Position numbers and translations under genes: made by a program. The notes under the pieces are model-generated. The model ran no database searches and was not told where the DNA came from. It saw only the letters and a list, made by a program, of their open reading frames with translations. Below, one piece after another: positions 1,807-30,373 of a stretch of DNA of 64,000 bases. The number at the start of each line of letters is the position of its first letter. The stretch's first letter is position 1. Source of the DNA: Oscillospiraceae bacterium (GTDB lineage Bacteria > Bacillota > Clostridia > Oscillospirales > SIG627); assembly GCA_034925865.1 (NCBI GenBank), contig JAYFRN010000005.1, positions 5,964 through 69,963 of the forward strand. Direction: 5' to 3'.

Positions 1807-1936
1807 TATTATTAACAGTAATTAAATAATCGCTGCTTGTGAGAGAAAAGACTCTGATATACGGGCTTTTCTCTTGCTGTCTGAGTCACATAAAATAACT
1901 TTTTTACTTACTGTTTAATAATCTTCGTTTAATAAT
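1807..1936 (+). repeat. Nested-palindrome intergenic element, copy E (variant subfamily)
   Basis: Core hairpin GAGAGAAAAG-N15-CTTTTCTCT at 1841-1874. It is flanked by TATTATTAACAGTAATTAAATAAT on the left and TTACTTACTGTTTAATAAT on the right. Alignable to the copies at 19484, 28191, 29410 and 30270. Confidence 0.6.
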
Positions 1937-1995
1937 ATTTTTCTGCCAGGCAGATATTCAATTTCTACAAATATATAAAATTATTTATTATTCTA

Positions 1996-2024
1996 TTGAC
2001 AAATCTGTTTGGCGGTGGTATACT
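1996..2024 (+). promoter_or_regulatory. Sigma-70-type promoter of asnA-glnA
   Basis: TTGACA (1996-2001), 17-bp spacer, TATACT (2019-2024). Confidence 0.6.
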
Positions 2025-2106
2025 GCTTCCTAACAGCAAAGGTGCTGTAGGTGAGGCCTACGCACCTTATTTTGTTATTATTATTTATTATAGGAGTGAT
2101 TGTCAT

Positions 2107-3114
2107 ATGAGCAAAATTCAGATTCCAACAGATTATTCGTCAAAGCTCACAGTTTATCAAACTCAGACCGCAATTGGTCAGCTTAAGAGATACTTTGAGG
2201 ACAATTTGTCTAACGCGCTCAATTTAAAGCGCATATCCGCGCCGCTGTTTGTCGACGCAAAAACGGGGCTCAATGACAATCTTAACGGAGTTGAGCGTCC
2301 TGTAAAATTTGATATTCTTGAAACCGGCACAGACGCCGAGGTTGTTCATTCACTCGCCAAATGGAAAAGGCTTGCGCTTTGGAAATATGGTTTTAAACAT
2401 GGTGAAGGTCTATATACCGATATGAATGCCATCCGCCGTGACGAAACAATGGACAACCTTCATTCTATATATGTCGACCAATGGGACTGGGAAAAGGTTA
2501 TAACTGCAGAAGACAGAAATGAGGAATATCTGCGTGAAACCGTTTGCGATATCGTTTGCGCGATATGTGACACACTTGATGAAATGAAGGCTCAGTATCC
2601 TATTATTAATACAGAGCTTTGCCGTGAGGTAGCTTTTATTACCTCTCAGGAACTCGAAGATATGTATCCCGATTTGACATCGAAACAACGCGAGGACGAA
2701 TTTGTAAAGCTGCATAAAACCGCGTTTGTTATGCAAATAGGTGACAAGCTCAAATCAGGTGAAAAGCATGACGGGCGCGCACCGGATTACGATGACTGGA
2801 AGCTGAACGGAGATATTATTTTCTGGAATGACCTTCTCGGATGTGCCTTCGAGGTGTCCAGCATGGGAATCCGCGTAGATCCCGCGTCACTTGATACGCA
2901 GCTGACCAAGGCCGGATGTGATAATCGCCGTTCGCTTCCGTTTCACAAAATGCTTCTTGAAGGGAAACTTCCGCTTACTATGGGCGGAGGAATCGGACAG
3001 TCGCGTCTTTGCATGTTGATTCTTCAAAAGGCTCATATAGGAGAAGTACAGGTGTCTGTCTGGGACGACGCCACATTGGATACATGCAAAAAAGCGGGAA
3101 TAGCCATTCTCTGA
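2107..3114 (+). CDS. asnA: Aspartate-ammonia ligase (asparagine synthetase A)
   Basis: From [12 protein letters not shown] onward the translation is full-length AsnA-like (class II aaRS-like fold, about 335 aa). AGGAG lies 10 nt upstream of ATG 2107. The track ORF start at 1996 coincides with the promoter -35 box. Confidence 0.9.
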
Positions 3115-3141
3115 AAATATATTTGAAAGGCAAATAAGCGT

Positions 3142-5223
3142 ATGGATATACAATCAGTTTTCGGATCGATGGTATTCAGCGACAGCGTCATGAAAGAACG
3201 TCTGCCGCGCGAAATATACGATGAATTTCAGAACTCGATCAAACAGGGAAAAAGTCTCGAGCTTCCGGTCGCTAATATAATTGCCCGCGAAATGAAGGAT
3301 TGGGCAATCGAAAAAGGAGCGACACATTATACTCATTGGTTTCAGCCAATGACAGGAATGACCGCCGAAAAACATGACAGCTTCATAACAGTCTCCGCAA
3401 ACGGCGTGATTATGGATTTTTCCGGGAAAGAATTGATTAAAGGAGAGCCGGATGCGTCCAGTTTTCCTTCGGGCGGTTTGCGCGCCACATTTGAAGCACG
3501 CGGTTATACAAGCTGGGATCCTACTTCATACGCGTTTATTAAAGACGGAACGCTCTGCATTCCTACCGCATTTTGTTCATACAGCGGAGAAGCTCTTGAT
3601 AAGAAGACGCCTCTTCTGCGCTCAATGGAAGCGATTGGCAATGAAGTAAAACGCCTGATGAAAGCCATCGGCGACGAATGCGATTCCGTTCAGACTACAA
3701 TAGGAGCGGAACAGGAATATTTTCTTGTCGACCGCGCCGCATTTAAAAAGCGCCGCGACTTAATATTTACAGGAAGGACGCTTTTCGGAGCAATGCCGCC
3801 TAAAGGGCAGGAGCTCGAGGATCATTATTTCGGCGCGATCCGTCCGCGTGTCTCCCTTTATATGAAAGCGCTTGACGAGGAGCTTTGGAAACTGGGGGTT
3901 TTTGCGAAAACCGAGCATAACGAGGTTGCTCCGTCTCAGCATGAGCTTGCTCCGATATTCACCACCGCGAACGTTGCGGTAGACCACAATCAGCTTACAA
4001 TGGAAATGATGAAAAAGGTAGCCGCAAAATTTGATCTCGCCTGCCTTCTTCATGAAAAGCCTTTTGCCGGAGTCAATGGCTCGGGAAAGCATGAAAACTG
4101 GTCTGTCGGCATAAACGATAAAGTAAATTTATTTAAACCCGGTGACAATCCGAGAAAGAATTACCGTTACCTTCTTTCAATTTGCGCGGTAATATCTGCC
4201 GTGGACGAGTATCAGGAACTATTGCGTCTTACCTGCGCAAGCGCCGGAAACGATCACCGCCTCGGAGCGAACGAAGCGCCGCCGGCAATTATCAGCATGT
4301 TTATCGGCGATGAGCTGTGCGAAATATTTGATTCGATCTGCCAGGGCAGTGAATATATAAACCGCGACCGCGCGGCAATGGAAACCGGTGTTCATGTTCT
4401 GCCTCAGTTCAAGCGTGATTCCACAGACAGAAACCGTACGTCGCCCTTTGCGTATACAGGGAATAAATTCGAATTCCGTATGCCTGGTTCTTCATTTTCC
4501 GTCGCGGATTCGACGACTGTATTGAATACTATTGTCGCTGATGTACTGATGAGATTTTCTGATGAACTTGAGAATGCGTCCGACATTCCGTTGGCCATAG
4601 AAAAGCTTATTGCCCGTGAATACACTGCTCATAAGAGAATAGTATTCAACGGCAACAACTACGCTCCGGAATGGCTTGAGGAAGCAAAGAAACGCGGATT
4701 ATTAAATCTGCCGTCAGTTTCTGACGCCATACCGTATTTAATATCTGAAAAGAGCATAAAGCTATTTAAGCGCCATAAGATATTCACTGAAAACGAGCTA
4801 CGTTCCCGCTGTGAAATATATCTTGAAAATTATTGCAAGGTCGTCAATATCGAAGCTCTCACTATGATTTCAATGACACATCAGGAAATTATCCCTGCTA
4901 TTGAAAAATATACGGCTCAAATCTGCAACGCCGGAAAAGTAAAAAAAGAGCTTTCAGGCAGTATCTCAACGAAATTTGAAGAAAACTACGCAAATAGACT
5001 TTCCGATAATATGCTCACTATTTCTGAAAGGCTTGAAATACTCGAAAAATGCGTCGCAAAAATTAAAGAGATTCAAAATACACTTGATTGCGCGCGTTAT
5101 TACAAGTCTGATGTGATTCCCGCTATGGATTCGCTGCGTGAAATCTGCGACGAGCAGGAAACGCTGGTAAGCCGTGAAGCATGGCCGTTCCCCTCATACG
5201 GCGAAATATTGTTCAGCTTCTGA
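3142..5223 (+). CDS. glnA: Glutamine synthetase, type III
   Basis: 693-aa ORF. Length and sequence (N-terminal GSIII domain, [18 protein letters not shown] catalytic region) fit type III GS. It starts 27 nt after asnA. Confidence 0.9.
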
Positions 5224-5294
5224 TTAAATCGGGCGCTGCCGCAGCAATGTGTGCAGCGTCCGGTTAGTTTTAATGTAAGATTGAATCCCATCTA

Positions 5295-5323
5295 TTGACG
5301 TTTCAGAAAATATATGCTACAAT
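5295..5323 (+). promoter_or_regulatory. Sigma-70-type promoter (extended -10)
   Basis: TTGACG (5295-5300), 17-bp spacer, TGcTACAAT (-10 hexamer at 5318-5323). Confidence 0.6.
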
Positions 5324-5353
5324 ATTTAAAATCTATGGAGAGGAAAGCACGTC

Positions 5354-5440
5354 ATGACATCCGTATACAATCGTAATAATCAACAGCAGCAGCAACTCGT
5401 GATCAAATCGATAACGGGCTTTTGTTGTTGTATTCTATAG
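5354..5440 (+). CDS. 28-codon mini-ORF MTSVYNRNNQQQQQLVIKSITGFCCCIL (leader peptide or small Cys-rich peptide)
   Basis: ATG preceded by GGAGAGGAAAG with 6-nt spacing. It lies between a strong promoter and an intrinsic terminator. Too short for the ORF track. Confidence 0.35.
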   Translation: MTSVYNRNNQQQQQLVIKSITGFCCCIL

Positions 5441-5470
5441 ATCGCACAAAAATATAGCTATTAGAATTAA

Positions 5471-5509
5471 CGGTTAAAGTCCAAAAAAGGATTTTGACCG
5501 TTTTTTTTT
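5471..5509 (+). terminator. Intrinsic terminator in the leader of the MetRS-family gene
   Basis: 12-bp stem CGGTTAAAGTCC / GGATTTTGACCG (two G-U pairs), A6 loop, then a run of nine T. Confidence 0.6.
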
Positions 5510-5548
5510 CGAAGAAGACTTAATATTATTTTAATGGGAGCAATAATC

Positions 5549-7474
5549 ATGGAAAGCAAAAAAGCATCAGAAAGACCTTCTTTTCCAAAAAGAGCACTGG
5601 TGACAGGCGGTATGCCATACGGTGAGAAAGAATTGTATTTTCATCATATCGGAGGAGTTTTTGTTCATGCCGATATATTTGCACGCTTCATGCGCGATCG
5701 TATCGGAAAAGAAAATGTTTTGTTCATATCAGGAACTGACTGTTACGGTGCCGGTGTTGAGCTCGGCTATAAAAAAGCTTTGTGTGCCGGATTTATCGGA
5801 AGCATAAACGATTTTGTTTTACAAAAACACAATAAGCAAAAAGAAGTGCTTGAAAAGTATCAAATATCTCTTGATATATATTCAGGTTCAGCATTAGACG
5901 ATGCTGCAAAAATTCACAATGATTTATCCGCAGAAATATTTAATGCTCTTTATAACAATGGCTATTTGAAACTGGAACGAACCATGCAGTTTTTTGACAC
6001 TGAAAAGGGCGTTTATCTTAATGGGCGGCAAGTCAAAGGCCGTTGCCCAATACAAGGTTGTAAATCAGAAAATGCATATGCCGACGAATGCTCTCTCGGT
6101 CATCAATATAGCCCAGATGAGCTTATAGATCCAATAAGTGTTCTTTCAGTAAAAACACCGGAGCGTGTTCCTGTTGATAACTGGTTTTTTGACTTGCCTG
6201 CAATTTCTGAACAACTAAACAACCTGTTGGAAGAATGGGAAAATAATCCGTCTTGCAGAAAAACATTAACAACAGTAGTACGAGAATTTTTACGTAAGCC
6301 TGCAATTTATATAAAAAATGAATTAATTGATGAAGTACGAAAATATGATGAAATGCCTTCTTATGTTCTGATTAAAGATGAAACAAAAGCATCATCAGCA
6401 CTGGAGTTTGATACTTTAATTGAAAGAGATAAAGCAATTCTGCTATTAACAAAAAAAGGAATACATTTTAGAACGGGTAAAACAATCGTACCATTCAGGT
6501 TATCAGGTAATGTAAGTTGGGGTGTTCCTGTCCCGAGCAAAGATGGATTAGAGGGTCTGACATTCTGGGTATGGCCAGAATCATTATGGGCACCAATATC
6601 TTTTACAAAAGCGGTATGCCGTGAAAAAGGCTGCAATACAGGTTGGTCGGAATGGTGGAAATCGGATGATTCAAAGGTATATCAATTTATTGGTGAAGAT
6701 AATATGTATTTTTATGCTATAGCTGAAATGGGAATATTTATGGCATTGAACGAAGGTTATAAAATGCCGGAGATAGTACCTAATCGCCACATTCTATACG
6801 GAAAGACAAAGGCTTCAAGCAGCGGCGATAATAAACCTCCCAAAGCGGATGAACTGCTTGATTATTATACTCCAGAACAACTAAGATTACATTTTATGAA
6901 CACCAGTTTAAGCGATAGAAGTGTAGGCTTTGAGCCAAAAGCATTTATGAAAGGTAACAGCGGTTTTGATAATGTTTTAAATGAGGGTAATTTGGCGACA
7001 AATGTTTTTAATCGGCTTTTACGTTCTTGCTTCTATACCATTCAGAAATATAATAATGGCATTCTGCCTGAATATGCGGTAAGCAGTGAGGTAAAAAGGA
7101 GAGCAGATGATGTGATATTGGAATATGAAAAATTAATGTCGATATTTGCGTTCGATAAGGTTTTTGAGCTGTTGAATTTATATCTTCGCGATGCCAACAA
7201 AGACTGGTCGACAAGAAGCAAAAATGATAATCCTGATGATATTAAGAAATTAATATCCGATAGCATCCATGTTATCAGAACAGCTGCTGCCTTGTTTCAT
7301 CCCATAACACCTGTCAGTTGTGAGATGATCCGGGAGTATTTGAATGTTGATGATAGAATCTGGGATTGGAAGTATATTTTTGAACCCTTAAACTTTTTTA
7401 TTGATCGAAATCATACATTGAAGTTCCTTGAACCTCGCATTGACTTTTTTAAAAAGCATGAATCACAATTATAA
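5549..7474 (+). CDS. Class I aminoacyl-tRNA synthetase family protein, MetRS-like, with divergent signature motifs
   Basis: Alignable by eye to MetRS: MPYGEKELYFHHIGG, a Cys knuckle GRCPIQGCKSENAYADECSLGH, FWVWPESLWAP, YQFIGEDNMYFY. GGGAG lies 8 nt before ATG 5549 (the track start at 5534 is less likely). HIGH reads HIGG and KMSKS reads KASSS. Confidence 0.75.
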   Translation: MESKKASERPSFPKRALVTGGMPYGEKELYFHHIGGVFVHADIFARFMRDRIGKENVLFISGTDCYGAGVELGYKKALCAGFIGSINDFVLQKHNKQKEVLEKYQISLDIYSGSALDDAAKIHNDLSAEIFNALYNNGYLKLERTMQFFDTEKGVYLNGRQVKGRCPIQGCKSENAYADECSLGHQYSPDELIDPISVLSVKTPERVPVDNWFFDLPAISEQLNNLLEEWENNPSCRKTLTTVVREFLRKPAIYIKNELIDEVRKYDEMPSYVLIKDETKASSALEFDTLIERDKAILLLTKKGIHFRTGKTIVPFRLSGNVSWGVPVPSKDGLEGLTFWVWPESLWAPISFTKAVCREKGCNTGWSEWWKSDDSKVYQFIGEDNMYFYAIAEMGIFMALNEGYKMPEIVPNRHILYGKTKASSSGDNKPPKADELLDYYTPEQLRLHFMNTSLSDRSVGFEPKAFMKGNSGFDNVLNEGNLATNVFNRLLRSCFYTIQKYNNGILPEYAVSSEVKRRADDVILEYEKLMSIFAFDKVFELLNLYLRDANKDWSTRSKNDNPDDIKKLISDSIHVIRTAAALFHPITPVSCEMIREYLNVDDRIWDWKYIFEPLNFFIDRNHTLKFLEPRIDFFKKHESQL

Positions 7475-7629
7475 TGAGTAAATATCACGCTGATAAATTA
7501 AAAGATGCAACTGATGCTTTACCTTCAGTCTGTTTTATCAAACAACATCGCCTTATGCTCCGGAACATTGACCCGAAAGATAGAGGAGTTCGTTTTCGTA
7601 TTGAACAGGTATACGAAGCGTTTGGATAA
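7474..7629 (+). CDS. 51-codon ORF MSKYHADKLKDATDALPSVCFIKQHRLMLRNIDPKDRGVRFRIEQVYEAFG, function unknown
   Basis: Its ATG overlaps the TAA of the MetRS-family gene (TAATG), which suggests translational coupling. Composition looks like a soluble protein. Too short for the track. Confidence 0.35.
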   Translation: MSKYHADKLKDATDALPSVCFIKQHRLMLRNIDPKDRGVRFRIEQVYEAFG

Positions 7630-18741: not shown

Positions 18742-18787
18742 AAATTTGCCCGGAGCCTTCAAAACGAAAAGCTCCGGGCAAATTTTT
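18742..18787. terminator. Bidirectional intrinsic terminator
   Basis: AAATTTGCCCGGAGC / GCTCCGGGCAAATTT hairpin flanked by an A-run and a T-run. It abuts the stop codon of the minus-strand gene. Confidence 0.6.
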
Positions 18788-19374
18788 TATATTCCGGTAA
18801 GAAGCAATATCTGTCCGATAGGATAAAACCACCAAATCAACTGATCTTTATTGTTTATATGCCGTCCGCCGACAAAGTCGACAGCGATAAAAACATCGGA
18901 TATCAGGAATGAAATCGCGCCGATACCGGAAAGCCACAGCCATCCGCCCGACGCGGCTGAGCAGGACAATACCGACGTACAGTCAAAGCATATAAAGGCA
19001 AGATATACAACACATAGGATTAGTAATTGTATGTTGCTTCCGCTGGAATTTGTTTTGTTCAGCCAAAATAAAAAGGTAACCAAGATAATAAAAATAAAAG
19101 TTCCCAATACGGTTCCGTAATTAAAGAACATTGTTCCTGACATTCTTTGACGGATTATAAAGGCCGCGCTGTAAAGGCAATGGGCAATAATAAAACTCAT
19201 TGTCCCCGCTTCAAATGAATGCTTTTTTAAAAAAGCTGTCATTATCGGTTCCCATTTGGCCAGAAGTATATCTCCTCCGGATGAAAACAACATACCGAGG
19301 AAACAGAAAAGTCTATATGGGGAAGGGAAAATAACAAATATTATTAAAGAATATGTCAAGATAATCGCCGTCAA
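18787..19374 (-). CDS. YhhN-family (lysoplasmalogenase-like) membrane protein
   Basis: 195-aa polytopic ORF with GGDILLA and ISDVFIA motifs, as in the YhhN family. Confidence 0.5.
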   Translation of the reverse strand: MTAIILTYSLIIFVIFPSPYRLFCFLGMLFSSGGDILLAKWEPIMTAFLKKHSFEAGTMSFIIAHCLYSAAFIIRQRMSGTMFFNYGTVLGTFIFIILVTFLFWLNKTNSSGSNIQLLILCVVYLAFICFDCTSVLSCSAASGGWLWLSGIGAISFLISDVFIAVDFVGGRHINNKDQLIWWFYPIGQILLLTGI

Positions 19375-19483
19375 TACGACACTTCCGCTTATTCTTTTTG
19401 TTTGAAAGAACCGATCCGCTTTTCATCGCCTCTCTTTTTGCATCAATATATCCGTTGAAGAGTCAAATATGAATTCGCGAATA

Positions 19484-19594
19484 TATTAACTCGGCATTTA
19501 ATTAAATAATTACCGCATTAAGTGAGAAAAGACTCTGGTATATAGGCTTTTCTCTTTTATAAAGCAATGGTTATTTAATCGTCATTTTAATAAT
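19484..19594 (+). repeat. Nested-palindrome intergenic element, copy A
   Basis: TATTAACTCGGCATTTAA ... GAGAAAAG-N15-CTTTTCTC ... TTTTAATAAT. The right arm is partly degenerate. Confidence 0.65.
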
Positions 19595-19646: not shown

Positions 19647-21332
19647 TTATGTTTCCCGCATCAACTGAAATGCCTGAAACAGATTAAGACTTCCGTATCC
19701 CCATCTGTTATTGGGATACGTCATATTTTCGCTTCTGTTGCATCCGCGAATCATGTAAGCGCGTATTTGATATGTGCTGATGGCAGGATCGTTTTCTTTG
19801 ACTATGCCCCATTGAAGCATGAGGGCTGCGGCACCGGAGGTTATTGCCGTCGCTGCGCTGGTTCCGTCCATTGTTCCGCGCCCGTAAGGATAAAAGCCTT
19901 CTATATTTACTCCGGGAGCGACAAGATCGGGAGCGAAATTTTCCGTACGAGTGGGTCCCCATGATGAATTTGCGTACAAGCTGTTCAAAGTGGTATTATA
20001 AGCGCCGCATACAATGGCTCCCGTCATTGTCGCTGGACCTGTAATTGTATAATTCGGGCTCGGAGAAAGGAATACAACACTGGGATCGACAAACCCTGTC
20101 AGAGGCAGCCAAGAGTGAAACCTGCCGTTTAGAATTAAGTCGCCGTAAACGGTTATGGTCCAAATGCCCGGAGTAGGATCGATGAGCTTAATTGCCGTCA
20201 GCTGTCCGCCCGATCCTTCTATAGGATAATAATATGACAGCCGGACAGATGATTTCTCCAATATCATTTTAGTCAGTGTAACGTTTCCCGAGCGCGCCGG
20301 TATTCTGGGGATAAATTCACCCGTAGGAGAACGGATGGCTACCGAAATCCTATCCGATACTCCTGTCCAGATCGAAACAAAAAAATCCCCTGCGTTTTCT
20401 CCCACTTTTATATCTATATTCTGCGTTTCCCCTGTCGCCGCAATAACTCCATCCATATGGTGCCGTGCCTGGCTTTCGTTTCCTGCCGCAATGCAAAGAC
20501 ATACGCCGACTAAATCAGATATTCCTCTTAAATATTCCTGGAATATTGAATATTGATCATGACTTCCGAAATTGGTGCCTAATCCTATACATATGACCAC
20601 CGGTCGGTTAAATCGTCTCGCCCTGTCCAGTATATATTCGATGCCAATCATGATTGCACTGGATTCATATGCATATTCCTGTGTTTTTGGCACGGCAAAA
20701 AGCTCAAGGTAATATGGTCTTGCTTTTCTGAGCTTTACGGCAATGATTTCAGCATCAGGCGCCGCACCGATGAAATCGTCCGTTTCCCGCCCGGCGGCCA
20801 CTGATGCCAGAAAGGTTCCGTGCCCGGAAGTGTCTTCTTCGGGAACGATCTGCTTTGGATTGTCGCTTTGAAGAGCCGCGTTGATTTGATCGTTTGTATA
20901 TTCCGTACCAATGTAAAATCCCTCCGGTGGCGGACCCTCTACAGTCTGGTCATAGATTGATATTATTTTGCTGCTTCCGTCCTCGTATTTAAAAACATCC
21001 AAAGTATAATCAATTCCGGTGTCCACAATACCGAAGATAACGCCCTGTCCTCTCAGATTCAGATATGGTTGATCATGAACCTGAGTAATACCGCTTATAT
21101 CAAGAGTACCATTATCCAGCAAGCCGAAAACGAGTGATTGCACACTGATAAGCCCGGAGCCTAAGAGTTTTCTCAATTCTAAAAAAACATTCTCTTTAGA
21201 ATACGCAATCAGATAGCGGCCCGCTAGCTGTTGAGCAATGGCTACTTCATATTGTCTGATTGCCGCCTCAGTAAATTCATTACTTCGTATGATAAAATCC
21301 ACGGTATTAGGATCATAAAGCAGCTTTTGCAA
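19647..21332 (-). CDS. Germination-specific subtilisin-like serine protease (Csp family), paralogue 1
   Basis: S8 triad motifs VDTGIDYT, SGHGTFLASVAAG and DGTSAATAITSGAAALM. Tandem with three paralogues next to sleC. The true start may lie upstream (see findings). Confidence 0.85.
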   Translation of the reverse strand: MQKLLYDPNTVDFIIRSNEFTEAAIRQYEVAIAQQLAGRYLIAYSKENVFLELRKLLGSGLISVQSLVFGLLDNGTLDISGITQVHDQPYLNLRGQGVIFGIVDTGIDYTLDVFKYEDGSSKIISIYDQTVEGPPPEGFYIGTEYTNDQINAALQSDNPKQIVPEEDTSGHGTFLASVAAGRETDDFIGAAPDAEIIAVKLRKARPYYLELFAVPKTQEYAYESSAIMIGIEYILDRARRFNRPVVICIGLGTNFGSHDQYSIFQEYLRGISDLVGVCLCIAAGNESQARHHMDGVIAATGETQNIDIKVGENAGDFFVSIWTGVSDRISVAIRSPTGEFIPRIPARSGNVTLTKMILEKSSVRLSYYYPIEGSGGQLTAIKLIDPTPGIWTITVYGDLILNGRFHSWLPLTGFVDPSVVFLSPSPNYTITGPATMTGAIVCGAYNTTLNSLYANSSWGPTRTENFAPDLVAPGVNIEGFYPYGRGTMDGTSAATAITSGAAALMLQWGIVKENDPAISTYQIRAYMIRGCNRSENMTYPNNRWGYGSLNLFQAFQLMRET

Positions 21333-21459
21333 TAGTTCTTTATTTTCCGGACTGTTAATGTAGCTGTCTATATCAATACACTCCCTTACTTATTTATATG
21401 ACATTTTTACTTATATACTGCATAAATTGATATTCTTCAATATTATGATATTAAAATAT

Positions 21460-23145
21460 CTATGTTTCTCGCATAAGCTGAAAAGCTTGAAACAAATTAA
21501 GGCTTCCGTAACCCCAGCTGTTATTGGGGTATATCATGTTTTCGCTCCGGTTACAGCCTCGTATCATATAGGCGCGTATTTGATATGTGCTCAGAGAAGG
21601 ATCATTTCCTTTGACTATGCCCCATTGAAGCATGAGGGCCGCGGCTCCGGCGGTTATTGCCGCCGCTGCGCTTGTTCCGTCCATTGTTCCTCGCCCGTAA
21701 GGATAAAAGCCTTCTACATTAACGCCGGGTGCGACAAGATCAGGAGCTAAATTCTCTATACGAGTAGGTCCCCGTGACGAATTTGCGTACAAACTGTTCA
21801 AAGTGGTATTATAAGCGCCGCATACAATAGCGCCTGTCATTGTCGCTGGGCCTGTAATCGTATAATTTGGGTTCGGAGAAAGGAATACAACGCTCGGATC
21901 GACAAATCCGGTAAGAGGCAGCCATGAATGGAATTTGCCGTTCAGAATCAGGTCGCCATAAACGGTTATGGTCCAAATTCCCGGTGTCGGACCAAAGAGC
22001 TTAATTGCTGTCAGTTGCCCGCCCGTTCCTTCTATCGGATAATAATACGCTATATCAACAGATGATTTTTCCAAGATCAGTTTGGTTGAAATAATTTCTC
22101 CCGAGCGTGCCGGTATTCTTGGGATAAATTCACCCGCAGGAGAACGGACAGCAACCGAAATTCTGTCAGATACTCCTGTCCATATTGAAACAAAAAAATC
22201 TCCTGCGTTTTCTCCAACTCTTATGTCTATGTTCTGTGTTTCCCCGGTTGCCGTAATAATATCATTCATATGATGTCTTGCCTGACTTTCATTTCCGGCC
22301 GCGACACAAAGGCAGACTCCTACCTGATCGGACACACCGCTCAGATATTCTTGAAATATGGAATATTGATCGTGACTTCCGAAATTCGTGCCTAATCCTA
22401 TACATATGACCACCGGCCGATTTAAACGTCTCGCTCTGTCCAGTATGTATTCGACGCCAACCATTATGGCACTGGATTCATAAGCATATTCCTGCGTTTC
22501 AGGTACAGCATATAAATTAAGATAATAGGGTCTTGCTTTCCTGAGCTTTACGGCTATGATTTCGGCATCAGGTGCCACACCGATGAAATCGTCCGTCTCC
22601 CGTCCGGCGGCCACCGATGCCAGAAAGGTTCCGTGCCCGGAGGTATCTTCTTCGGGAACGATCTGCTTTGGATTGTCGCTTTGAAGGGCCGCGTTGATCT
22701 GTTCGTTTGTATATTCTGTGCCAATGTAAAATCTCTCCGGAGGAGGGCCCTCGACTGTCTGGTCATAGATTGATATTATTTTGCTGCTCCCATCCTCGTA
22801 ACGGAAAACATCCAATGTATAATCTATTCCTGTGTCCACAATTCCGAAGATAACGCCCTGTCCCCTCAGATTCAAGTATGGCTGATCATGTACTTGTGTG
22901 ATACCGCTCGAATTAAGGTTGATATTGTCAAGCAAGCCGTAAACAAGCGATAATATACTGATTAGCCCGGCGCCCAGCAGCTTTCTCATTTCGATAAAAA
23001 CATCCTGTCTGGAATAAGCAATTAAATACCGTCCTCCAAACTGTTTTGCGATAGCAACTTCGTATTTTTTAATTATTGATTCGGTGAATTCATTACTTCG
23101 TATGACAAAATCCACAGTGTCAGGATCATAAAGCAGCTTTTGCAA
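21460..23145 (-). CDS. Csp-family subtilisin-like protease, paralogue 2 (recent duplicate of paralogue 1)
   Basis: Same length as paralogue 1 (561 aa) and near-identical over most of it. The D/H/S motifs are intact. Confidence 0.85.
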   Translation of the reverse strand: MQKLLYDPDTVDFVIRSNEFTESIIKKYEVAIAKQFGGRYLIAYSRQDVFIEMRKLLGAGLISILSLVYGLLDNINLNSSGITQVHDQPYLNLRGQGVIFGIVDTGIDYTLDVFRYEDGSSKIISIYDQTVEGPPPERFYIGTEYTNEQINAALQSDNPKQIVPEEDTSGHGTFLASVAAGRETDDFIGVAPDAEIIAVKLRKARPYYLNLYAVPETQEYAYESSAIMVGVEYILDRARRLNRPVVICIGLGTNFGSHDQYSIFQEYLSGVSDQVGVCLCVAAGNESQARHHMNDIITATGETQNIDIRVGENAGDFFVSIWTGVSDRISVAVRSPAGEFIPRIPARSGEIISTKLILEKSSVDIAYYYPIEGTGGQLTAIKLFGPTPGIWTITVYGDLILNGKFHSWLPLTGFVDPSVVFLSPNPNYTITGPATMTGAIVCGAYNTTLNSLYANSSRGPTRIENLAPDLVAPGVNVEGFYPYGRGTMDGTSAAAAITAGAAALMLQWGIVKGNDPSLSTYQIRAYMIRGCNRSENMIYPNNSWGYGSLNLFQAFQLMRET

Positions 23146-23349
23146 TAATTCTTTGTTTTCCGGACTGTTAATGTAGCTGTCTATATCAATACACTCCTTT
23201 ACTGTTTTTAAACGGTAATAGAATAATGCTTTTATATGATTAAAATCCTATATGTCAAAAGTTTTAAATATGCGGCAGAGGTATATTGAATTGCCTTTTT
23301 AATAATATACGTTAATTGCCACATTAAAAACAATCCAACATGTCGCTAT

Positions 23350-25074
23350 TTACATTTCTTTCATTATTTGAAAGGCCTGTATCAGATTGAGGCTTCCGTA
23401 ACCCCATCTGTTATTGGGATATGTCATATTTTCGCTCCGGTTACATCCACGGATCATATAAGCTTTTATGTGATATGTACTCATGGAAGGATTGTTTGCT
23501 TTGACTATTCCCCATTGAAGCATCAAAGCCGCGGCGCCTGCGGTTATTGCTGCCGCCGCGCTGGTTCCGTCCATTGTTCCGCGCCCATAAGGATAAAAGC
23601 CATCTATATTAACACCGGGCGCAACAAGATCGGGAGATAAATTTCCAATACTTGTCGGTCCCCAGGATGAATATGAGTATAGACTGTTCAGGCTGGAATT
23701 ATAAGCGCCACAGACAATGGCTCCTATCATCGTTGCCGGGATGGTTACGGTATAATTTGGATTGGGAGCAAGGAATATTATACTCGGATCAACAAACCCT
23801 GTCATGGGCAGCCACGCATTGAATTTACCGTTTAAAATGATTTCTCCGAAAACAGTAATCGTCCATGTTCCCGGCGTTGGATTGATGAGTTTAATTGCCG
23901 TAAGCTGTCCGCCCGTACCTTCTATCGGAAAATAATATGATATACCGATGGATGCTCCTTCCAATAACAACTTTGTCGTAAAAATGCTTCCTGAATGAGC
24001 GGGTATTCTCGGTACTAATTCACCGGTTGGCGAACGGATTGAAACTGAAACTCTGTCTGACACACCTGTCCATATTGAAATTAAGGCGTTCCCTGTGTTT
24101 TCACCAACTATTATATCAATATCTTGAGTTTCGCCGGTTGCCGTGATCAGACCTTCTGCATGATGCTTTGCCTGGCTTTCATTTCCCGCCGCAATACAAA
24201 GGCAAACGCCTTTAAGGTTGGATACATTGTTTAGATACTCTTCAAATATTGTATAACCATCATGGCTTCCGAAATTAGTGCCGAGACCAAGACAAATGAC
24301 GACGGGTTTGTTAAGACGACTCGCTTTTTCCAATATGTATTCAATCCCTATCATGACGTTGCTGGATTCAAAAGCATAATTTTGTGCTTCTGGCACGGAA
24401 AATAAATCGAGGTAATAAGGTGCTGCTTTCCTGAGCTTGACGGCTATGATCTCGGCATCCGGTGCAGCGCCGATGAAATCGGCCGTTTCCCGTCCGGCAG
24501 CCACCGATGCCAGAAAGGTTCCGTGGCCGGAGACATCTTCCTCCGGGATAAGCTGTTTAGGATTATCGCTTTTAAGAGCAGCGTTGATTTGATTGTTTGT
24601 ATATTCCGTACCGAAATAAAATCCTTCCGGAGGACGGTCTTCAATTGTTTGGTCATAAATTGATACTATCTTGCTGCTTCCATCCTCATACCGAAAGATA
24701 TCCAATGTGTAATCAATTCCGGTGTCTACAAACCCGATAATGACTCCTTCACCTCTTAAATTCAGATATGGCTGATCATGAACTTGAGTAATACCGCTTG
24801 ATTTAAGGCTTATATTATCAAGTAATCCGAGAATTACTCCCCTGATACTTATCACCCCTGCGCCCAGCTTTTTTCTTATATCTGAAAAAATATCCTGCTT
24901 GGAATAACATATTGTATATTGTCCTAAAAGTGTTTTCGCCAATGCTATATCATATTTATTTATTAATGTTTCTGAATACTGGTTTTTGCGTATGACAAAA
25001 GCCACTGAGTCCGGATCCAAAAGCAACTTCTGTAATAAGCATTTATTCTTTTCGCAATCTATATAGCTGTCCAA
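23350..25074 (-). CDS. Csp-family subtilisin-like protease, paralogue 3
   Basis: 574 aa. VDTGIDYT, SGHGTFLASVAAG and DGTSAAAAITAGAAALM are present. AAGGGAG lies 9 nt before the TTG start. Confidence 0.85.
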   Translation of the reverse strand: MDSYIDCEKNKCLLQKLLLDPDSVAFVIRKNQYSETLINKYDIALAKTLLGQYTICYSKQDIFSDIRKKLGAGVISIRGVILGLLDNISLKSSGITQVHDQPYLNLRGEGVIIGFVDTGIDYTLDIFRYEDGSSKIVSIYDQTIEDRPPEGFYFGTEYTNNQINAALKSDNPKQLIPEEDVSGHGTFLASVAAGRETADFIGAAPDAEIIAVKLRKAAPYYLDLFSVPEAQNYAFESSNVMIGIEYILEKASRLNKPVVICLGLGTNFGSHDGYTIFEEYLNNVSNLKGVCLCIAAGNESQAKHHAEGLITATGETQDIDIIVGENTGNALISIWTGVSDRVSVSIRSPTGELVPRIPAHSGSIFTTKLLLEGASIGISYYFPIEGTGGQLTAIKLINPTPGTWTITVFGEIILNGKFNAWLPMTGFVDPSIIFLAPNPNYTVTIPATMIGAIVCGAYNSSLNSLYSYSSWGPTSIGNLSPDLVAPGVNIDGFYPYGRGTMDGTSAAAAITAGAAALMLQWGIVKANNPSMSTYHIKAYMIRGCNRSENMTYPNNRWGYGSLNLIQAFQIMKEM

Positions 25075-25088
25075 AATGATATACTCCC

Positions 25089-26780
25089 TTACTGGTTATA
25101 TAACACGAGATCATCCATGGTATCACATAGATTAAGTGTTCCGTATCCCCATATAGGATTAGGATATTTTATGGGGAATTTTCTTTCGGCGTTTCTGCAT
25201 AAAAAGGCTTTTATTCTCTGCCCGTACAGGAAGAAGTCGTTTTTCTGATTTTCACCCCATTCCATCATGAGTGCTGCCGCTCCGGTAACAAAAGGCGCGG
25301 CAATACTCGTGCCGCTGAAGCTGTCATATCCTCCGCCGACAGCGGCAGTTGTTATATCTATTGCCGGAGCAACCAGATCCGGCTTTTGCCCATATGTCCA
25401 ATATCCTGTGCCTCGTCCGGAAAATTCGGCGCAGGTATTTAGAATTGCGGAATATCCGCCGACAGCGATAACTCTGAATGATGTAGCAGGAAGTGTTATT
25501 GTGTTTTCAATACTTGGCACAAGAAAAGCGGTTTTTTCTGTGACCATATCAGTCATAGGAAGCCATATATCAAAATTGCCGTCTACAATTTTCGTCCCGG
25601 TAATTGCGAGCCGCCATATTTCCTGATTCATTGAACCGGATACGCTTTGCAGCGAAATATATATTTCCTGATTGAAGTTATAATGATTTGGCTGACCGTA
25701 AAGGATCATTATTTTAACATTGCCTAATGTTACTTGTTTCACGCGTTCAAAAGCGTTTATTACTCCTGTTGAAATTCCTGACGGAGTAAATAACTCAATT
25801 TGAAATGAATCGGCAAAATTTTTCCATAAGGTCATATAAAGCTGACTTATATTTTCACCGATGGAGAATTCTACATTGTCAGTTTGCAGTTGCTTCAATT
25901 GGTTGTGATAATGATGCCCCGCGCTTCCTTCATTTCCGGAGGCCACACAGATGACGTTTTTCCATCTCTGCGCGGCTGAATCAAGGTAACCCTCGAAAAG
26001 TGAAGTGCCGTTATGCGCCCCGTCATTTGTTCCGTAGCTTATATTAATCGCAATCGGTTTCTCTACGCCTTGCGCTATATCAATGCAGAATTTCACTCCC
26101 CGCATGATTTCCGTACTTTTTGCAAAACCGGGTTTATCAGAACCGAGTTTTACTATTATTATTTCAGCTTGTGGAGCCACTCCGATGTTATCTCCATTGC
26201 TGGCTCTGCCGTTTCCCGCTGCGACTCCGGCGACAGCTGTTCCGTGTCCAAAAAAATCCTGTTCAGGTACAATTGATAATGGATTATCGCTCGCAAGCGC
26301 CAGATCAATATCAGCTTTTGTATAAAGGTGACCGTTTTTGAATCCCGAGGGCGGAGAGATGTCGGCAGCAGTTTGATCCCACAGGTACATAATACGGCTT
26401 GTTCCGTCAGGTTGTCGAAAATCCGGATGCGTATAATCAATGCCGGAATCTATTATTCCGATAAATACTCCTTTGCCTGACAGATTATAACCGCTTTCAA
26501 GCTGAACAGGACTGATGCAGGCGGCGTCAAGGCTGCGTTCCAATTGATAAGTGACCGTTTTTGGCAGCTCATAATATTCAATTTGACTTAGTTGTATAAT
26601 TGTGGGAATACGATAAGCGGGCAATGTCAAGATTGCGTAATTTTCATTTAATTCTTCAGCGGAGGCTTCCAGTTTTTCTGCGATTTCATCAAGGCTGCCG
26701 TGATATTTTATTATAACTTCTATATTTTGTTCCGGATCGAAGCCCTGGAATTGCCTTATTAATTGTTCCCGTATATCCAT
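25089..26780 (-). CDS. Csp-family subtilisin-like protease, divergent paralogue 4 (CspB-like)
   Basis: IDSGIDYTHPDF, FGHGTAVAGVAAG and SGTSIAAPFVTGAAALM are present. AAAGGAG lies 7 nt before ATG 26780 (the track start at 26831 is less likely). Confidence 0.85.
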   Translation of the reverse strand: MDIREQLIRQFQGFDPEQNIEVIIKYHGSLDEIAEKLEASAEELNENYAILTLPAYRIPTIIQLSQIEYYELPKTVTYQLERSLDAACISPVQLESGYNLSGKGVFIGIIDSGIDYTHPDFRQPDGTSRIMYLWDQTAADISPPSGFKNGHLYTKADIDLALASDNPLSIVPEQDFFGHGTAVAGVAAGNGRASNGDNIGVAPQAEIIIVKLGSDKPGFAKSTEIMRGVKFCIDIAQGVEKPIAINISYGTNDGAHNGTSLFEGYLDSAAQRWKNVICVASGNEGSAGHHYHNQLKQLQTDNVEFSIGENISQLYMTLWKNFADSFQIELFTPSGISTGVINAFERVKQVTLGNVKIMILYGQPNHYNFNQEIYISLQSVSGSMNQEIWRLAITGTKIVDGNFDIWLPMTDMVTEKTAFLVPSIENTITLPATSFRVIAVGGYSAILNTCAEFSGRGTGYWTYGQKPDLVAPAIDITTAAVGGGYDSFSGTSIAAPFVTGAAALMMEWGENQKNDFFLYGQRIKAFLCRNAERKFPIKYPNPIWGYGTLNLCDTMDDLVLYNQ

Positions 26781-26949
26781 TGTTTTTCTCCTTTGGTAAT
26801 AATCCCGTGTTATGGACACGTTTATTTCCACGCAAATATTATCTATAAGACAACTTTAAAAATTGCCGATAATAAACTGTGACTGTAATTAATAAAAAGT
26901 AATAATAAGAAAGCAACAGTCATAAAATTCAATTACGGAGGTGATAATT

Positions 26950-28185
26950 ATGAATAGAAATAATGAGGAAGTGGACACCGGTTATCTAAATGTCAGTGTT
27001 AAGTCTGTTCGCAACGCACAGCCTATTCCAGATGCAAAAGTAACTGTATCCAAACCAAATACGGTTGTTGAAGTGTTGAATACAGACTCTGCCGGTCAAA
27101 CTGAAACCATTCCGCTCGGAGCGCCGCCTGTGGAATATTCAGAGGAAGTGCTCGGCGTGAAACCTTATTCGGAATATCAGGTAGATGTTGAGGCTCCCGG
27201 ATATGAACGTGTCACAGTTAACGGAGTACAGCTGTTTTCAGAGAGTACCGCGATACAGGATATACGTCTTTTTGCGACCAATACACCCGGGACGCAGGAA
27301 ATAACTATCGAGCAACATACATTATGGGGAACATTCCCGCCAAAGATACCCGAGGCTGAGGTCAAGCCGCTTCCCGACGGCAATGGCTATATCGTGCTTC
27401 CCCAACCGGCAATTCCTGAATATATGGTCGTACATTTGGGAGTGCCGAATGATAAAACCGCAAGAAATGTCTGGATTCCTTTCAAGGATTATATTACAAA
27501 CGTTACCTGCTCGGAAATTTATTCCACTTGGCCAGTACAAACTATACGCGCCAATATTTTAGCTATATTATCTTTTGCGTTGAATCGTGTATATACCGAA
27601 TGGTATCGTGGGAAGGGCTATGATTTTACAATAACAAACAGCACCGCTTATGATCTCATGTTTGTTTACGGACGCAATTATTATTACAATATACAAAATA
27701 TTGTCGATGATTTGTTTACAACTTATGTAACCAAACCCGGTATACGACAACCGCTTTTTACTCAATTTTGTGACGGTTCACGGGTAACCTGCGATGGCCT
27801 TGAGCAATGGGGCTCAAAAAGTATGGGAGACCAGGGAAAGGATGCCCTCACGATCCTGCGTTCATATTATGGCTCAAATGTATACCTGAAGCAGGCCGAT
27901 AAGGTTCAGGGCGTCCCGATTTCTTATCCCGGTGAAGCGCTCAGAATCGGATCCTCCGGTATGGATGTACGTACTATTCAAACACAGCTGAACAGCATAT
28001 CCGATAACTATCCGATGATTCCGAAGATCAAGGTAGACGGTATCTACGGTCCGAAAACCGCCAATGCGGTAAAAACCTTTCAGAAAATATTTTATTTGCC
28101 GGCTACAGGAGTTGTAGATTTCGCGACATGGTATAAAATATCCAATATTTATGTTGCCGTTAATCGTTTGTCTGAATTAGGATGA
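26950..28185 (+). CDS. sleC: Spore cortex-lytic enzyme SleC-like (pre-pro form) with a C-terminal peptidoglycan-binding domain
   Basis: About 410 aa. The C-terminal PG_binding_1 signature is SSGMDVRTIQTQLN...DGIYGPKTANAVKTFQ. It is divergently adjacent to the csp genes, as in Clostridium csp-sleC loci. GGAGG precedes ATG 26950. Confidence 0.75.
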   Translation: MNRNNEEVDTGYLNVSVKSVRNAQPIPDAKVTVSKPNTVVEVLNTDSAGQTETIPLGAPPVEYSEEVLGVKPYSEYQVDVEAPGYERVTVNGVQLFSESTAIQDIRLFATNTPGTQEITIEQHTLWGTFPPKIPEAEVKPLPDGNGYIVLPQPAIPEYMVVHLGVPNDKTARNVWIPFKDYITNVTCSEIYSTWPVQTIRANILAILSFALNRVYTEWYRGKGYDFTITNSTAYDLMFVYGRNYYYNIQNIVDDLFTTYVTKPGIRQPLFTQFCDGSRVTCDGLEQWGSKSMGDQGKDALTILRSYYGSNVYLKQADKVQGVPISYPGEALRIGSSGMDVRTIQTQLNSISDNYPMIPKIKVDGIYGPKTANAVKTFQKIFYLPATGVVDFATWYKISNIYVAVNRLSELG

Positions 28186-28190
28186 TATAC

Positions 28191-28296
28191 TATTAACTCG
28201 GCATTTGAATAATTACCGCTCACAGAGAGAAAAGGCTCTAATATATAGGTTTTTTCTTTTATAAAAACAAAAATTGTTTAATGCCGTTTTAATAAT
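28191..28296 (+). repeat. Nested-palindrome intergenic element, copy B
   Basis: It fills essentially the whole gap between the convergent sleC and amidase genes. TATTAACTCGGCATTTGAATAATTACCGC ... GAGAGAAAAG ... TTTAATGCCGTTTTAATAAT. Confidence 0.7.
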
Positions 28297-29240
28297 TACT
28301 TATGTCTTTCAACAAGCTCAATCGTTTCATACATGATTTTCCTGCTGTCGATATTTATCCAATGATTATTAGGCAAATACTCCGGATGGCGTACGCATAT
28401 GCAATACATGATTCTATTTCCGCTTGATTTGTCAACGGTATCAGAATCTATTGCGTCATATAAAGGCAGCTCGACCGGTATTGTGCGTCCGGACAAATCG
28501 GTTTGTCCGTGATAGATAACGATATGATTTCCGCACATACCGCGGTAAACAATAACATCAGCTTTTGATACCGGATTATGTCTCTTGTCTTGAGAATACA
28601 CTTCGATAAACAGGCGGCATACTCCTTTGTTATTATCGGGATACAGCTGGTAAAACGGAGTGGGAGCCGGATCATATGCTTCGGACATTGTGGCTAAATG
28701 AAAATAAAATATTATACCGTTTGAAATGCCAAACGCAAATTGATCGGGATGATCGAACATCAGATCGGCATCACCCTTGTTTGTTATAAATCCCATTTCG
28801 ATAAGGATTACGGGTATGGCATTTCTAACGGAAGAATGAAAGCCCGGATTTATATAAACGCCGCGGTTCTGCAGCTTTGTCGTAATATATAGCTGTTCCA
28901 GAATTGTCTCAGCAAGCGGCTTCGCATCGGGAGAAGATACAATACAATCTGAACCTGTCGCGTACGGATCTGTTGAAGCGTTTGTATGTAAGCTTATAAT
29001 ATAATCCGCTCCCCACCTCCTTGCATCGTCGATCCGCACAGACGACGAGCTTGATCTTGAATAACCCAGCTGTATATCAGGTGAATTTCGCGATAAACGA
29101 GTTTCAAAACCGTTATCATTCAGTATTGCGGCAATCAGCAGCCCGATTTCATATGTAAGCTCATGTTCACGGTATCCGTGACCTTCTGCTCCGGCATCAG
29201 TATTATTAGGGTTATGCCCCTGATCAATATATATTTTCAT
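28296..29240 (-). CDS. N-acetylmuramoyl-L-alanine amidase (Amidase_3) with an extra C-terminal domain
   Basis: From MKIYIDQGHNP the sequence reads ...GAEGHGYREHELT...ISLHTNAS, typical of Amidase_3. GGAGG lies 10 nt before ATG 29240. Confidence 0.8.
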   Translation of the reverse strand: MKIYIDQGHNPNNTDAGAEGHGYREHELTYEIGLLIAAILNDNGFETRLSRNSPDIQLGYSRSSSSSVRIDDARRWGADYIISLHTNASTDPYATGSDCIVSSPDAKPLAETILEQLYITTKLQNRGVYINPGFHSSVRNAIPVILIEMGFITNKGDADLMFDHPDQFAFGISNGIIFYFHLATMSEAYDPAPTPFYQLYPDNNKGVCRLFIEVYSQDKRHNPVSKADVIVYRGMCGNHIVIYHGQTDLSGRTIPVELPLYDAIDSDTVDKSSGNRIMYCICVRHPEYLPNNHWINIDSRKIMYETIELVERHK

Positions 29241-29409
29241 GACTAGATAACCTCCGGCATAGTTTCTATAATAAGTATATGGTAAAACGGACATTATGTT
29301 AAACGAGAGCGCGATAAAAAATCGGCTGTATCTTTGCGCATGATTTGCGCTTTGACACAGCCGGTTCTTAAGCTATTATCTATAACAATCGATTAAAACC
29401 CTATCACAT

Positions 29410-29497
29410 ATTATTAAAACGGCATTTAGAGAGAAAAGCCCATATACCAGAGTCTTTTCTCTCATTAAGCTATAATTATTTAAATGCCGAGTTAATA
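29410..29497 (-). repeat. Nested-palindrome intergenic element, copy C (shortest, inverted orientation)
   Basis: ATTATTAAAACGGCATTTA GAGAGAAAAG-N15-CTTTTCTCTC ... ATTTAAATGCCGAGTTAATA. Confidence 0.7.
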
Positions 29498-29515
29498 AAT
29501 AAATTTATAATACTA

Positions 29516-29558
29516 TTGCAAAATGGTCATTGGTGTGCTATAATTATAACGAACGTTA
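29516..29558 (+). promoter_or_regulatory. tetR promoter with an overlapping palindromic operator
   Basis: TTGCAA (29516-29521), 17-bp spacer, TATAAT (29539-29544). The palindrome TAACGAACGTTA follows at 29547-29558. Confidence 0.55.
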
Positions 29559-29577
29559 AATATAAGGAATATGTATT

Positions 29578-30138
29578 ATGGTCGATAAAGATTTAAAAGA
29601 GCGAATTAAAGAAGTGGCTGTTGAGCATTTCAACAGAACAGGATACTATGGAACAACCATACGCAACATAGCAAGCGATGTGAATTGTTCCTTGCCGATG
29701 ATTTATTATTATTACAAGAATAAAAAAGAATTGTTTGATGAAATTATAAAAAAAGATTATTTTAATCTTTTAAAAAGGCAAGCTTTGCTCTTGAAAATCA
29801 ACAATATAATAGATTTTTATACGAAGTTCGTATATGATCTGAACGACCTGAGCAACTATGATAAACAAGTTTACCGACTTGGTATCAAGGTTTATCTGTC
29901 CTTTGACGGAGATGAGGAACTAATGAAACTCATGGATGAGTGGGAAAAGACCATACTTCCCAGACACTATAAAATTCTGCAGCCATATCTGATGAATACG
30001 AATAACGATACGGTAATTACTCGAACTCTGGTGCACTTATTGGAAACAATGATCGAAAACATCATCGTGAAAAATAGATATCTGTCTGAAAAAGAGATTC
30101 GGGAAGAAATCGATGTTGTCCTTCGCGGATGCGAATAA
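29578..30138 (+). CDS. TetR/AcrR-family transcriptional regulator
   Basis: 186 aa with the N-terminal HTH FNRTGYYGTTIRNIASDVNCSLPMIYYYYKNKKELF. Confidence 0.85.
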   Translation: MVDKDLKERIKEVAVEHFNRTGYYGTTIRNIASDVNCSLPMIYYYYKNKKELFDEIIKKDYFNLLKRQALLLKINNIIDFYTKFVYDLNDLSNYDKQVYRLGIKVYLSFDGDEELMKLMDEWEKTILPRHYKILQPYLMNTNNDTVITRTLVHLLETMIENIIVKNRYLSEKEIREEIDVVLRGCE

Positions 30139-30173
30139 TTTATATATAAGCTGACAATTTAACGCAAAATCAG

Positions 30174-30205
30174 CCGGCATATGAAAATGCCGGTTAATAT
30201 TTACC
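30174..30205 (+). terminator. Hairpin after tetR (weak terminator)
   Basis: CCGGCAT-atgaaa-ATGCCGG followed by a T/A-rich tract. Confidence 0.4.
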
Positions 30206-30213
30206 TCGATATC

Positions 30214-30225
30214 TAACGAACGTTA
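30214..30225. promoter_or_regulatory. Second copy of the TAACGAACGTTA palindrome (putative TetR operator)
   Basis: Exact repeat of the 12-mer at 29547-29558. It lies upstream of the gene at 30401. Confidence 0.5.
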
Positions 30226-30269
30226 TTAAAAATCAATGAGATATTGGTTTATAATATTTATTGCCGCGC

Positions 30270-30373
30270 TATTAAAACGGCATTTAAATAAGCCTTGTTT
30301 CATAAGAGAGAAAAGCCCATACACCAGAGTTTTTCTCTCTATAAGCGGTAATCATTTAAATGCCGAGTTAATA
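30270..30373 (-). repeat. Nested-palindrome intergenic element, copy D (inverted orientation)
   Basis: TATTAAAACGGCATTTAAAT ... GAGAGAAAAG ... TTTTCTCTC ... GCGGTAATCATTTAAATGCCGAGTTAATA. It ends 28 nt before the start codon at 30401. Confidence 0.7.

Follow-up and report, generated by a model that had tools for sequence, protein, structure and literature searches.

The closest described systems to the DNA reported here are short dispersed repeats of other bacteria. RUP is a 107-bp MITE (miniature inverted-repeat transposable element) of Streptococcus pneumoniae, with ends like those of the insertion sequence (IS) IS630-Spn1 (PMC3049150), while the Correia elements of Neisseria and the ERIC elements of enterobacteria have co-transcribed copies that fold into long hairpins, which RNase III cleaves or which change the decay of the mRNA (PMC10969869). 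In a 64,000 nt stretch of contig JAYFRN010000005.1 from a Clostridia bacterium (hereafter the window), we characterised five intergenic copies of a 107 nt repeat which shows the descriptive features of MITEs (PMC10969869, PMC3049150): it is shorter than 500 bp and non-coding, has terminal inverted repeats (about 4–30 bp being the usual range), is AT-rich and dispersed, has a stable predicted fold and comes in size variants. We conclude that the repeat is probably a family of small non-autonomous mobile DNA elements, MITE-like and belonging with the dispersed repeats of the RUP/Correia type. It is a previously undescribed, lineage-restricted family of a well-known kind.

The five window copies were all recovered with a covariance model (R1, built from 14 copies of the repeat), with scores of 86.8–117.5 bits and E values from 1e-14 to 1e-20. 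Alignment of the five segments with MAFFT gave a mean column identity of 68% with long invariant blocks, and in all five a GAGAGAAAAG...CTTTTCTCTC hairpin lies between a left and a right arm. The central sequence pattern occurred four times in the window, corresponding to four of the five copies, and the arm pattern ten times, versus 0.00 and 0.09 occurrences expected from shuffled sequences. Both the model scores and the shuffle counts thus bear out the original prediction of five mutually alignable intergenic segments, the coordinates of which were accurate to within 1–2 nt, with the exception of the right end of copy 1, which is better placed at 1921 than at 1936. On the opposite strand of the same five copies, R1 reached only 45–61 bits, showing that the repeat has a polarity despite its near-palindromic sequence. 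Copies 4 and 5 run in the opposite orientation to copies 1–3, and no ORF (open reading frame) of at least 80 aa overlaps any of the five, both as first proposed.

Copy 1 (1809–1921, plus strand; R1 86.8 bits, E 1.9e-14) is located in sense orientation 20 nt past the stop codon of the ORF at 1006–1788, upstream of the asnA promoter, and was found in identical form in Logan contig L001. It is the most diverged intact copy (79% identity to the consensus), has a 10 nt insertion past the inner stem, and its arms read CAGTAA/TTACTG in place of CGGCAT/ATGCCG, which represents three compensating changes. Copy 2 (19483–19593, plus strand, 111 nt; 107.3 bits, E 1.4e-18) is located between a yhhN-like gene (18787–19374, minus strand) and the last csp paralogue (19647–21332, minus strand), and is antisense to local transcription. 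Copy 3 (28190–28295, plus strand, 106 nt; 105.6 bits) fills the spacer between the convergent stop codons of a sleC-like gene (28183–28185) and an amidase gene (28296–28298), with the TAA stop codon of the latter directly abutting the copy; its left arm covers approximately 28190–28212, the inner stem-loop approximately 28224–28262 and the right arm approximately 28273–28295. Copy 4 (29411–29498, minus strand; 98.3 bits) is an 88 nt internal-deletion variant lacking TTATAAAACAAGGCTTATT, located in the divergent promoter region of the amidase and a TetR-family gene, with a predicted fold of −31.7 kcal/mol (z −7.0). Finally, copy 5 (30269–30374, minus strand, 106 nt; 117.5 bits, E 1.2e-20) is located between the TetR-family gene (stop at 30138) and the ORF at 30401–30850, is antisense to the upstream gene, ends 15 nt before the GGAG ribosome-binding site of that ORF and has a predicted fold of −38.7 kcal/mol (z −6.6).

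The repeat is not confined to the window. Among metagenome contigs the central pattern matched 12, all of which come from VSSQ01, a short-read assembly of a bioreactor metagenome. One of these (L004) shows window copies 3 and 4 with 70 nt flanks identical to those of the window, and VSSQ01 therefore contains the same strain. A covariance-model search for further copies, as had been proposed with the original prediction, covered the window and the VSSQ01 contigs (about 35 kb examined besides the window), and gave 14 further copies at unrelated loci, including a second copy on L011 and, on L003, a 42 nt derivative in which nothing but the two arms is left, so that similarity by local duplication alone is not upheld. 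At least 19 distinct copies are present in total. All of them are situated between ORFs, with both orientations present, and the neighbouring genes are unrelated housekeeping genes (nadA, GAPDH, a SpoU methylase, an ABC transporter, methyltransferases, a MerR regulator and others). Copies were found 0–20 nt past stop codons (copy 1, copy 3, L007, L011b and L012) as well as on the promoter side of genes (copy 4, L005 and L011a), and single genes are bracketed by copies in the case of the amidase (copies 3 and 4), the TetR-family gene (copies 4 and 5), the L010 ORF at 407–991 and the L011 ORF at 1077–2036. Seven of the short-read contigs start or end within a copy, in keeping with a repeat present many times in the genome.

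Some of these contigs display irregular forms of the repeat. On L003 (190–270) the nadA stop codon is closely followed by a terminator-like inverted repeat (AAAAAGCTCT...AGAGCTTTTT) with the mini-element in its loop, which may represent an insertion into a terminator hairpin. On L011 (2296–2330) the right end of a copy of the TT variant is immediately followed by a second right-arm fragment, ATGCCGAGTTAATTA, of the AG variant, an arrangement that resembles a partial tandem or the outcome of an abortive event. Variant right ends are present at L008:1–70 and L009:2320–2400, with approximately 50 nt of common similarity beyond them (GTCTGCYGAACAAT..AAACAYATACRACAGTAA), which might represent an alternative end or another repeat next to the first; this common flank was also considered as a lead-in to rRNA operons, which was rejected as Rfam finds no rRNA and the gene downstream on L009 is heparinase II/III-like. 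On L012, the stop codon of the ORF at 443–811 lies inside the end of the element.

The consensus of 16 good copies is 107 nt long and consists of TTATTAACTCGGCATTTAAATAA / TTACCGC / TTAAAGAGAGAAAAG / RCTCTGGTATATGGG / CTTTTCTCTCTTATAA / AACAAGGC / TTATTTAAATGCCGTTTTAATAA. The arms are 23 nt inverted repeats which enclose a 16-bp inner stem-loop and contain the perfect palindrome ATTTAAAT. In the consensus they are complementary at 21 of the 23 positions, with a fixed asymmetry of 2 nt in most copies (TTAA-CT-CGGC on the left versus GCCG-TT-TTAA on the right), so that the description of the right arm as the inverted complement of the left holds apart from this CT/TT difference; a minority right arm with GCCG-AG-TTAA (L003, L010a) is a perfect complement. 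The part that had been described as a variable filler of 0–25 nt is in fact the conserved segment TTATAAAACAAGGCTTATT, which prolongs the inner stem, is deleted in copy 4 and L010b, and is expanded by the 10 nt insertion in copy 1. Apart from the 42 nt arms-only form, copies are 88–113 nt in length, with internal deletions in copy 4, L010b, L011b and the arms-only form. The GC content of the element is 0.26–0.35 (consensus 30%) versus 0.37–0.51 for the window (about 43%). The mean pairwise identity of the copies is 83% (range 69–97%), and their identity to the consensus is 79–96%, in a star-like pattern.

The window copies are predicted to fold with −22 to −39 kcal/mol, with z-scores of about −5.6 to −7.0 for copies 3–5, −2.1 for copy 2 and −2.8 for copy 1; for four of these five copies the fold is strong. 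Across 18 sequences 86% of the cells were paired, with 87–94% pairing in helices 1–3, and a T-A/A-T switch at columns 15/112 marks a subfamily. Pairs changed on both sides numbered 11, versus 5.9 ± 1.8 in shuffles, showing that symmetry between the arms is important.

Insertion at one orthologous site was apparent from comparison with two relatives (L061 and L062), which keep the gene order of amidase, convergent sleC-like gene and csp genes, and where the amidases in the comparison are only 49–55% identical. The spacer between the amidase and sleC-like stop codons is 1 nt in L061, 13 nt in L062 and 110 nt in the window, of which 106 nt is copy 3, and the SleC-like protein ends in ...SELG* in all three. 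The comparison shows either gain of the element in the lineage of the window or its loss in both relatives. The tandem csp paralogues were also considered as internal empty sites, and were rejected as they are too diverged to define a junction.

R1 gave no significant match in L061–L065, or in the surroundings of dnaB in 35 related genomes (598 kb in total). Similarly, the central pattern had no matches in the 185,579 GTDB species representatives or in IMG/VR, whereas the arm pattern had four chance matches in IMG/VR (R1 E at least 0.16), none of which had a hairpin or a second arm. Searching plasmids and phages with the consensus using blastn gave short chance matches only. There was no Rfam match at gathering score in the whole window, and only chance-level matches (E at least 1.2) at a relaxed threshold in the region 28100–30500. 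A literal sequence search in papers gave no hits, and the searched literature describes no such family, which together with the Rfam result agrees with the initial view that this is not a named family.

The amidase of the host is 100% identical to an NCBI protein labelled "bioreactor metagenome", the next homologue among 5.8 billion proteins being 55% identical, and the best DnaB match among the GTDB species representatives is 58% identical, with matches from metagenome-assembled genomes of uncultured Clostridia/Eubacteriales. These distances indicate that the host is an uncultured Clostridia bacterium without a close sequenced relative. The window is ordinary chromosome, encoding a type III glutamine synthetase, MetRS, GdpP, DnaB, TilS and FtsH.

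The likeness to MITE, REP and RUP elements noted in the original prediction is supported by the dispersed copies, the deletion derivatives and the empty orthologous site. We infer that the repeat is a type II or orphan MITE, most likely mobilised in trans by a cut-and-paste mechanism, in which both 23-bp arms would be bound by a transposase whose gene lies elsewhere in the same genome. Insertion would have occurred into AT-rich spots at gene boundaries. The family was amplified within the lineage of a single uncultured Clostridia bacterium from a bioreactor, and has since decayed to the present mean pairwise identity of about 83%. Spread depends on the 23-bp terminal inverted repeats; the 42 nt arms-only derivative survives, solo arms mark decayed copies, and the middle is a passenger hairpin. 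As many copies are located 0–30 nt from stop codons or ribosome-binding sites, they should often be co-transcribed, and such copies would add a strong hairpin to the mRNA. By analogy with the Correia, ERIC and pneumococcal repeats (PMC10969869, PMC3049150), effects of these copies on termination, on RNase III cleavage and processing or on mRNA stability are plausible.

Several observations weigh against a mobile element. There was no autonomous IS with matching ends in the GTDB representatives, IMG/VR, plasmids or phages, and no transposase was found among the ORFs adjoining the copies on L002–L013 or among the unannotated ORFs of the window. No flank repeat was found outside the conserved ends when 14 copies were searched at all offsets for target-site duplications with k = 2–9. 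A TA or TTAA duplication could hide in the palindromic termini (T-TA-TTAA-C...G-TTAA-TA-A), where it would be inseparable from the arms; the orthologous empty site is compatible with a TA duplication, a TTAA duplication or none alike, and direct repeats are reported to fade in older MITE copies (PMC10969869). The empty site itself is a single comparison, and being between species it leaves the exact junction unfixed. The only datasets in which exact-protein look-ups found the organism (VSSQ01, SRR27243484 and SRR27243495) are the same as the window wherever compared, without strain polymorphism, and no sign of recent movement was seen. The paired changes in the arms are also ambiguous, as a selected hairpin would give the same pattern as a transposase binding both ends, and in the plus orientation the GCCG of the outer stem is followed by TTTTAATAAT, which resembles a long-stem terminator.

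The last two points lead to the explanation that the copies are structured RNA modules kept for a useful hairpin, whether as long-stem terminator, mRNA 3′ stabiliser or small RNA, and that they are immobile or domesticated, as proposed for SPRITE. The very stable folds, with z-scores down to −7, and the excess of two-sided pair changes over shuffles are as expected for such modules, as are the terminator-like plus strand, the location of several copies 0–20 nt past stop codons, and the position of copy 3 between convergent genes without any other terminator-like site. Such modules fit poorly, however, with the mixed orientation of the copies, of which copies 2 and 5 are antisense to the upstream gene and copy 4, L005 and L011a are on the promoter side, and neighbouring genes have terminator-like hairpins of their own, for instance at 30174–30193 and 30956–30987. 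None of the copies is called by a terminator consensus scan, and given this and their mixed orientation to upstream genes they do not qualify as canonical intrinsic terminators, which have a short G+C-rich stem, a 3–8 nt loop and a T run and are placed in sense orientation past a gene. Variable G-U cells (24) and A-C cells (22) were equally common, indicating that neither strand is favoured, which speaks against a strand-specific RNA. Furthermore, there is no Rfam match, two relatives lack the element at the orthologous site, and the arms-only derivative and the solo arms are better explained as DNA ends. The structured RNA or terminator module that had been offered as an equal alternative is thus disfavoured by the mixed orientation, the absence of G-U bias and the terminator scan, and we consider it unlikely. 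A promoter function was also considered and rejected, as no promoter-like site recurs at the same position of the element.

Two variants of the MITE-like interpretation go further, and together we give them only a slim chance: either the transposase is of a type new to MITEs, or copies at gene ends have been taken into use as terminators acting in both directions or as hairpins that stabilise the mRNA. In the first, the TTA-TTAA...TTAA-TAA ends would reflect site-specific insertion into the palindromic sequence TTATTAATAA, with duplication of TTAA. Candidates for the second would be copy 3, as the only hairpin between the sleC-like gene and the amidase, and the nadA mini-copy in its terminator loop; if co-option as terminator is true, transcript 3′ ends would be located just past GCCGUUUU, in the plus orientation only.

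The bracketing of single genes by copies suggests another kind of recombination site, either integron attC-like or a REP/BIME element spread by a RAYT (IS200/IS605-like) enzyme. The ends of the repeat contain AAC...GTT like the core sites of attC, and the copies are imperfect palindromes of attC-like length. Nevertheless they are dispersed in both orientations rather than in a one-direction array, and no integrase, recombinase or HUH enzyme was found in the scanned window ORFs (those adjoining copies, together with the majority of the larger ORFs). In the element-free relatives the bracketed amidase likewise stands in synteny with sleC and csp genes, and it is therefore not a cassette, and a repeat of 107 nt with 23 nt terminal inverted repeats is unlike the 20–40 nt REP hairpins, which makes this explanation very improbable. 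More doubtful still is that the arms are operators recognised by a DNA-binding regulator, such as the adjacent TetR-family protein, and define its regulon: the perfect palindrome in the arms and the two copies flanking the TetR-family gene would suit an operator, but all 107 nt are conserved, including the non-palindromic parts, copies are located past stop codons and in convergent spacers, where an operator would serve no purpose, and the neighbouring genes are without a common function. Local duplication of one intergenic region in the csp/sleC/amidase cluster, without genome-wide dispersal, has a negligible probability, since the crowding within 11.4 kb (19.5–30.9 kb) of four copies out of five, together with a relic and a solo arm, in the same region as four tandemly duplicated csp genes, is outweighed by the 14 copies next to unrelated genes on other contigs, by copy 1 beside asnA at 17.6 kb distance, by the sharp end of similarity at the element termini and by the absence of a copy downstream of the third csp paralogue.

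Apart from the five intact copies, the window contains some candidate remnants. The segment at 23205–23305 (minus strand), between two csp paralogues, is a probable decayed copy with 57% identity to the consensus (R1 24.4 bits, E 0.075); its right arm TATTGAATTGCCTTTTTAATAA is still recognisable, and its local alignment (z 5.7) scored above 300 of 300 shuffles. The same was true for the segment at 47464–47568 (plus strand; z 4.5), a possible decayed copy with 63% identity to the consensus (R1 22.9 bits, E 0.15). A solo arm, TTATTATTAAAACAGCAATTCAAT, is located at 30826–30848 (minus strand), with 20 of 23 positions matching the right arm; the unannotated 149-aa ORF at 30401–30850 takes its final ~8 codons and its TAA stop codon from it. 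A shorter hairpin at 61041–61070 (no strand assigned), GAGAAAAG-N14-CTTTTCTC, had been linked to the repeat by its arm sequence. Its position between vanG and vanY was confirmed, but its membership of the family is not supported: it has only the 8-bp GAGAAAAG/CTTTTCTC stem in common with the repeat and no arms, its alignment (z 3.1) is within the shuffled range, with the shuffle maximum exceeding the observed score, and R1 gave an E value of 0.077.

This hairpin lies within a complete vanG-type cluster on the minus strand (56963–63849), which consists of a vanT-like acyltransferase/racemase, vanXY-G, vanG, vanY-G and vanS, with a small ORF upstream which is probably vanR. The window also has a spore-germination cluster (19647–29294) of four tandem Csp subtilase paralogues, a SleC-like enzyme and the amidase; three of the four csp paralogues have 83–87% DNA identity, and the cluster is syntenic in the distant relatives L061 and L062. 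Upstream of asnA, the region 1996–2095 beyond copy 1 contains a strong promoter-like site (TTGACA-17-TATACT with TG), which a terminator-like hairpin at about 2031–2075 separates from the likely start codon; the hairpin has no Rfam match, and the region may be an attenuator or leader. Elsewhere in the window, a [FeFe]-hydrogenase/NADH-dehydrogenase-like cluster at 40000–47400 has a GC content of 0.46–0.51, above that of the rest of the window, and a 54 nt tandem direct repeat with 89% identity is present at 53489–53596, at the start of the ORF at 53486–54196.

The repeat described here adds an undescribed family of small repeats from a poorly sampled Clostridia lineage. It breaks short-read assemblies of its host, is usable as a lineage marker, and marks the sites where strong hairpins were inserted into germination and housekeeping transcripts. 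No new biological question is opened by it, as MITE-like repeats with such properties are well known, and its relation to these can be described by comparison with individual families. REP/BIME elements are 20–40 nt palindromes that share a conserved 5′ tetranucleotide and are accompanied by a RAYT gene in the genome, and the size and 23 nt arms of this repeat do not resemble those of REPs. Integron attC sites, such as the Vibrio cholerae repeats, are also imperfect palindromes (about 60–140 nt) with AAC...GTT near their ends and with highly similar copies within one genome; in contrast to these, the repeat does not form a one-orientation array, the scanned ORFs include no integrase, and the flanked genes are syntenic core genes.

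Like SPRITE, the repeat is an orphan (no IS partner can be identified and no target-site duplication resolved), has a long stem followed by a T-rich run, and is often close to the 3′ ends of genes. SPRITE differs in having 4 nt terminal repeats and a long T tract, as opposed to 23 nt arms and a short TTTT within the outer stem, and the orientation of the repeat is not tied to the upstream gene. The likeness to Correia and ERIC elements consists of a small non-coding sequence with inverted repeats of about 25 bp, present in both orientations near genes, although there is no sequence relation, and no promoter or integration host factor site was recognised in the repeat. RUP belongs to another sequence family, as judged by the zero central-pattern matches in the GTDB representatives rather than by an alignment with the RUP consensus, and has a reported TA duplication and a matching IS, neither of which was seen for this repeat, which has a nested inner hairpin and an uncultured Clostridia bacterium as host. 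Nevertheless the two are alike in their length of about 107 bp, in being AT-rich compared to the host genome (27.5% versus 39.5% GC for RUP, and about 30% versus about 43% here), in their terminal inverted repeats and highly base-paired predicted fold, and in an intergenic, dispersed distribution that is bunched in clusters and restricted to one species or lineage.

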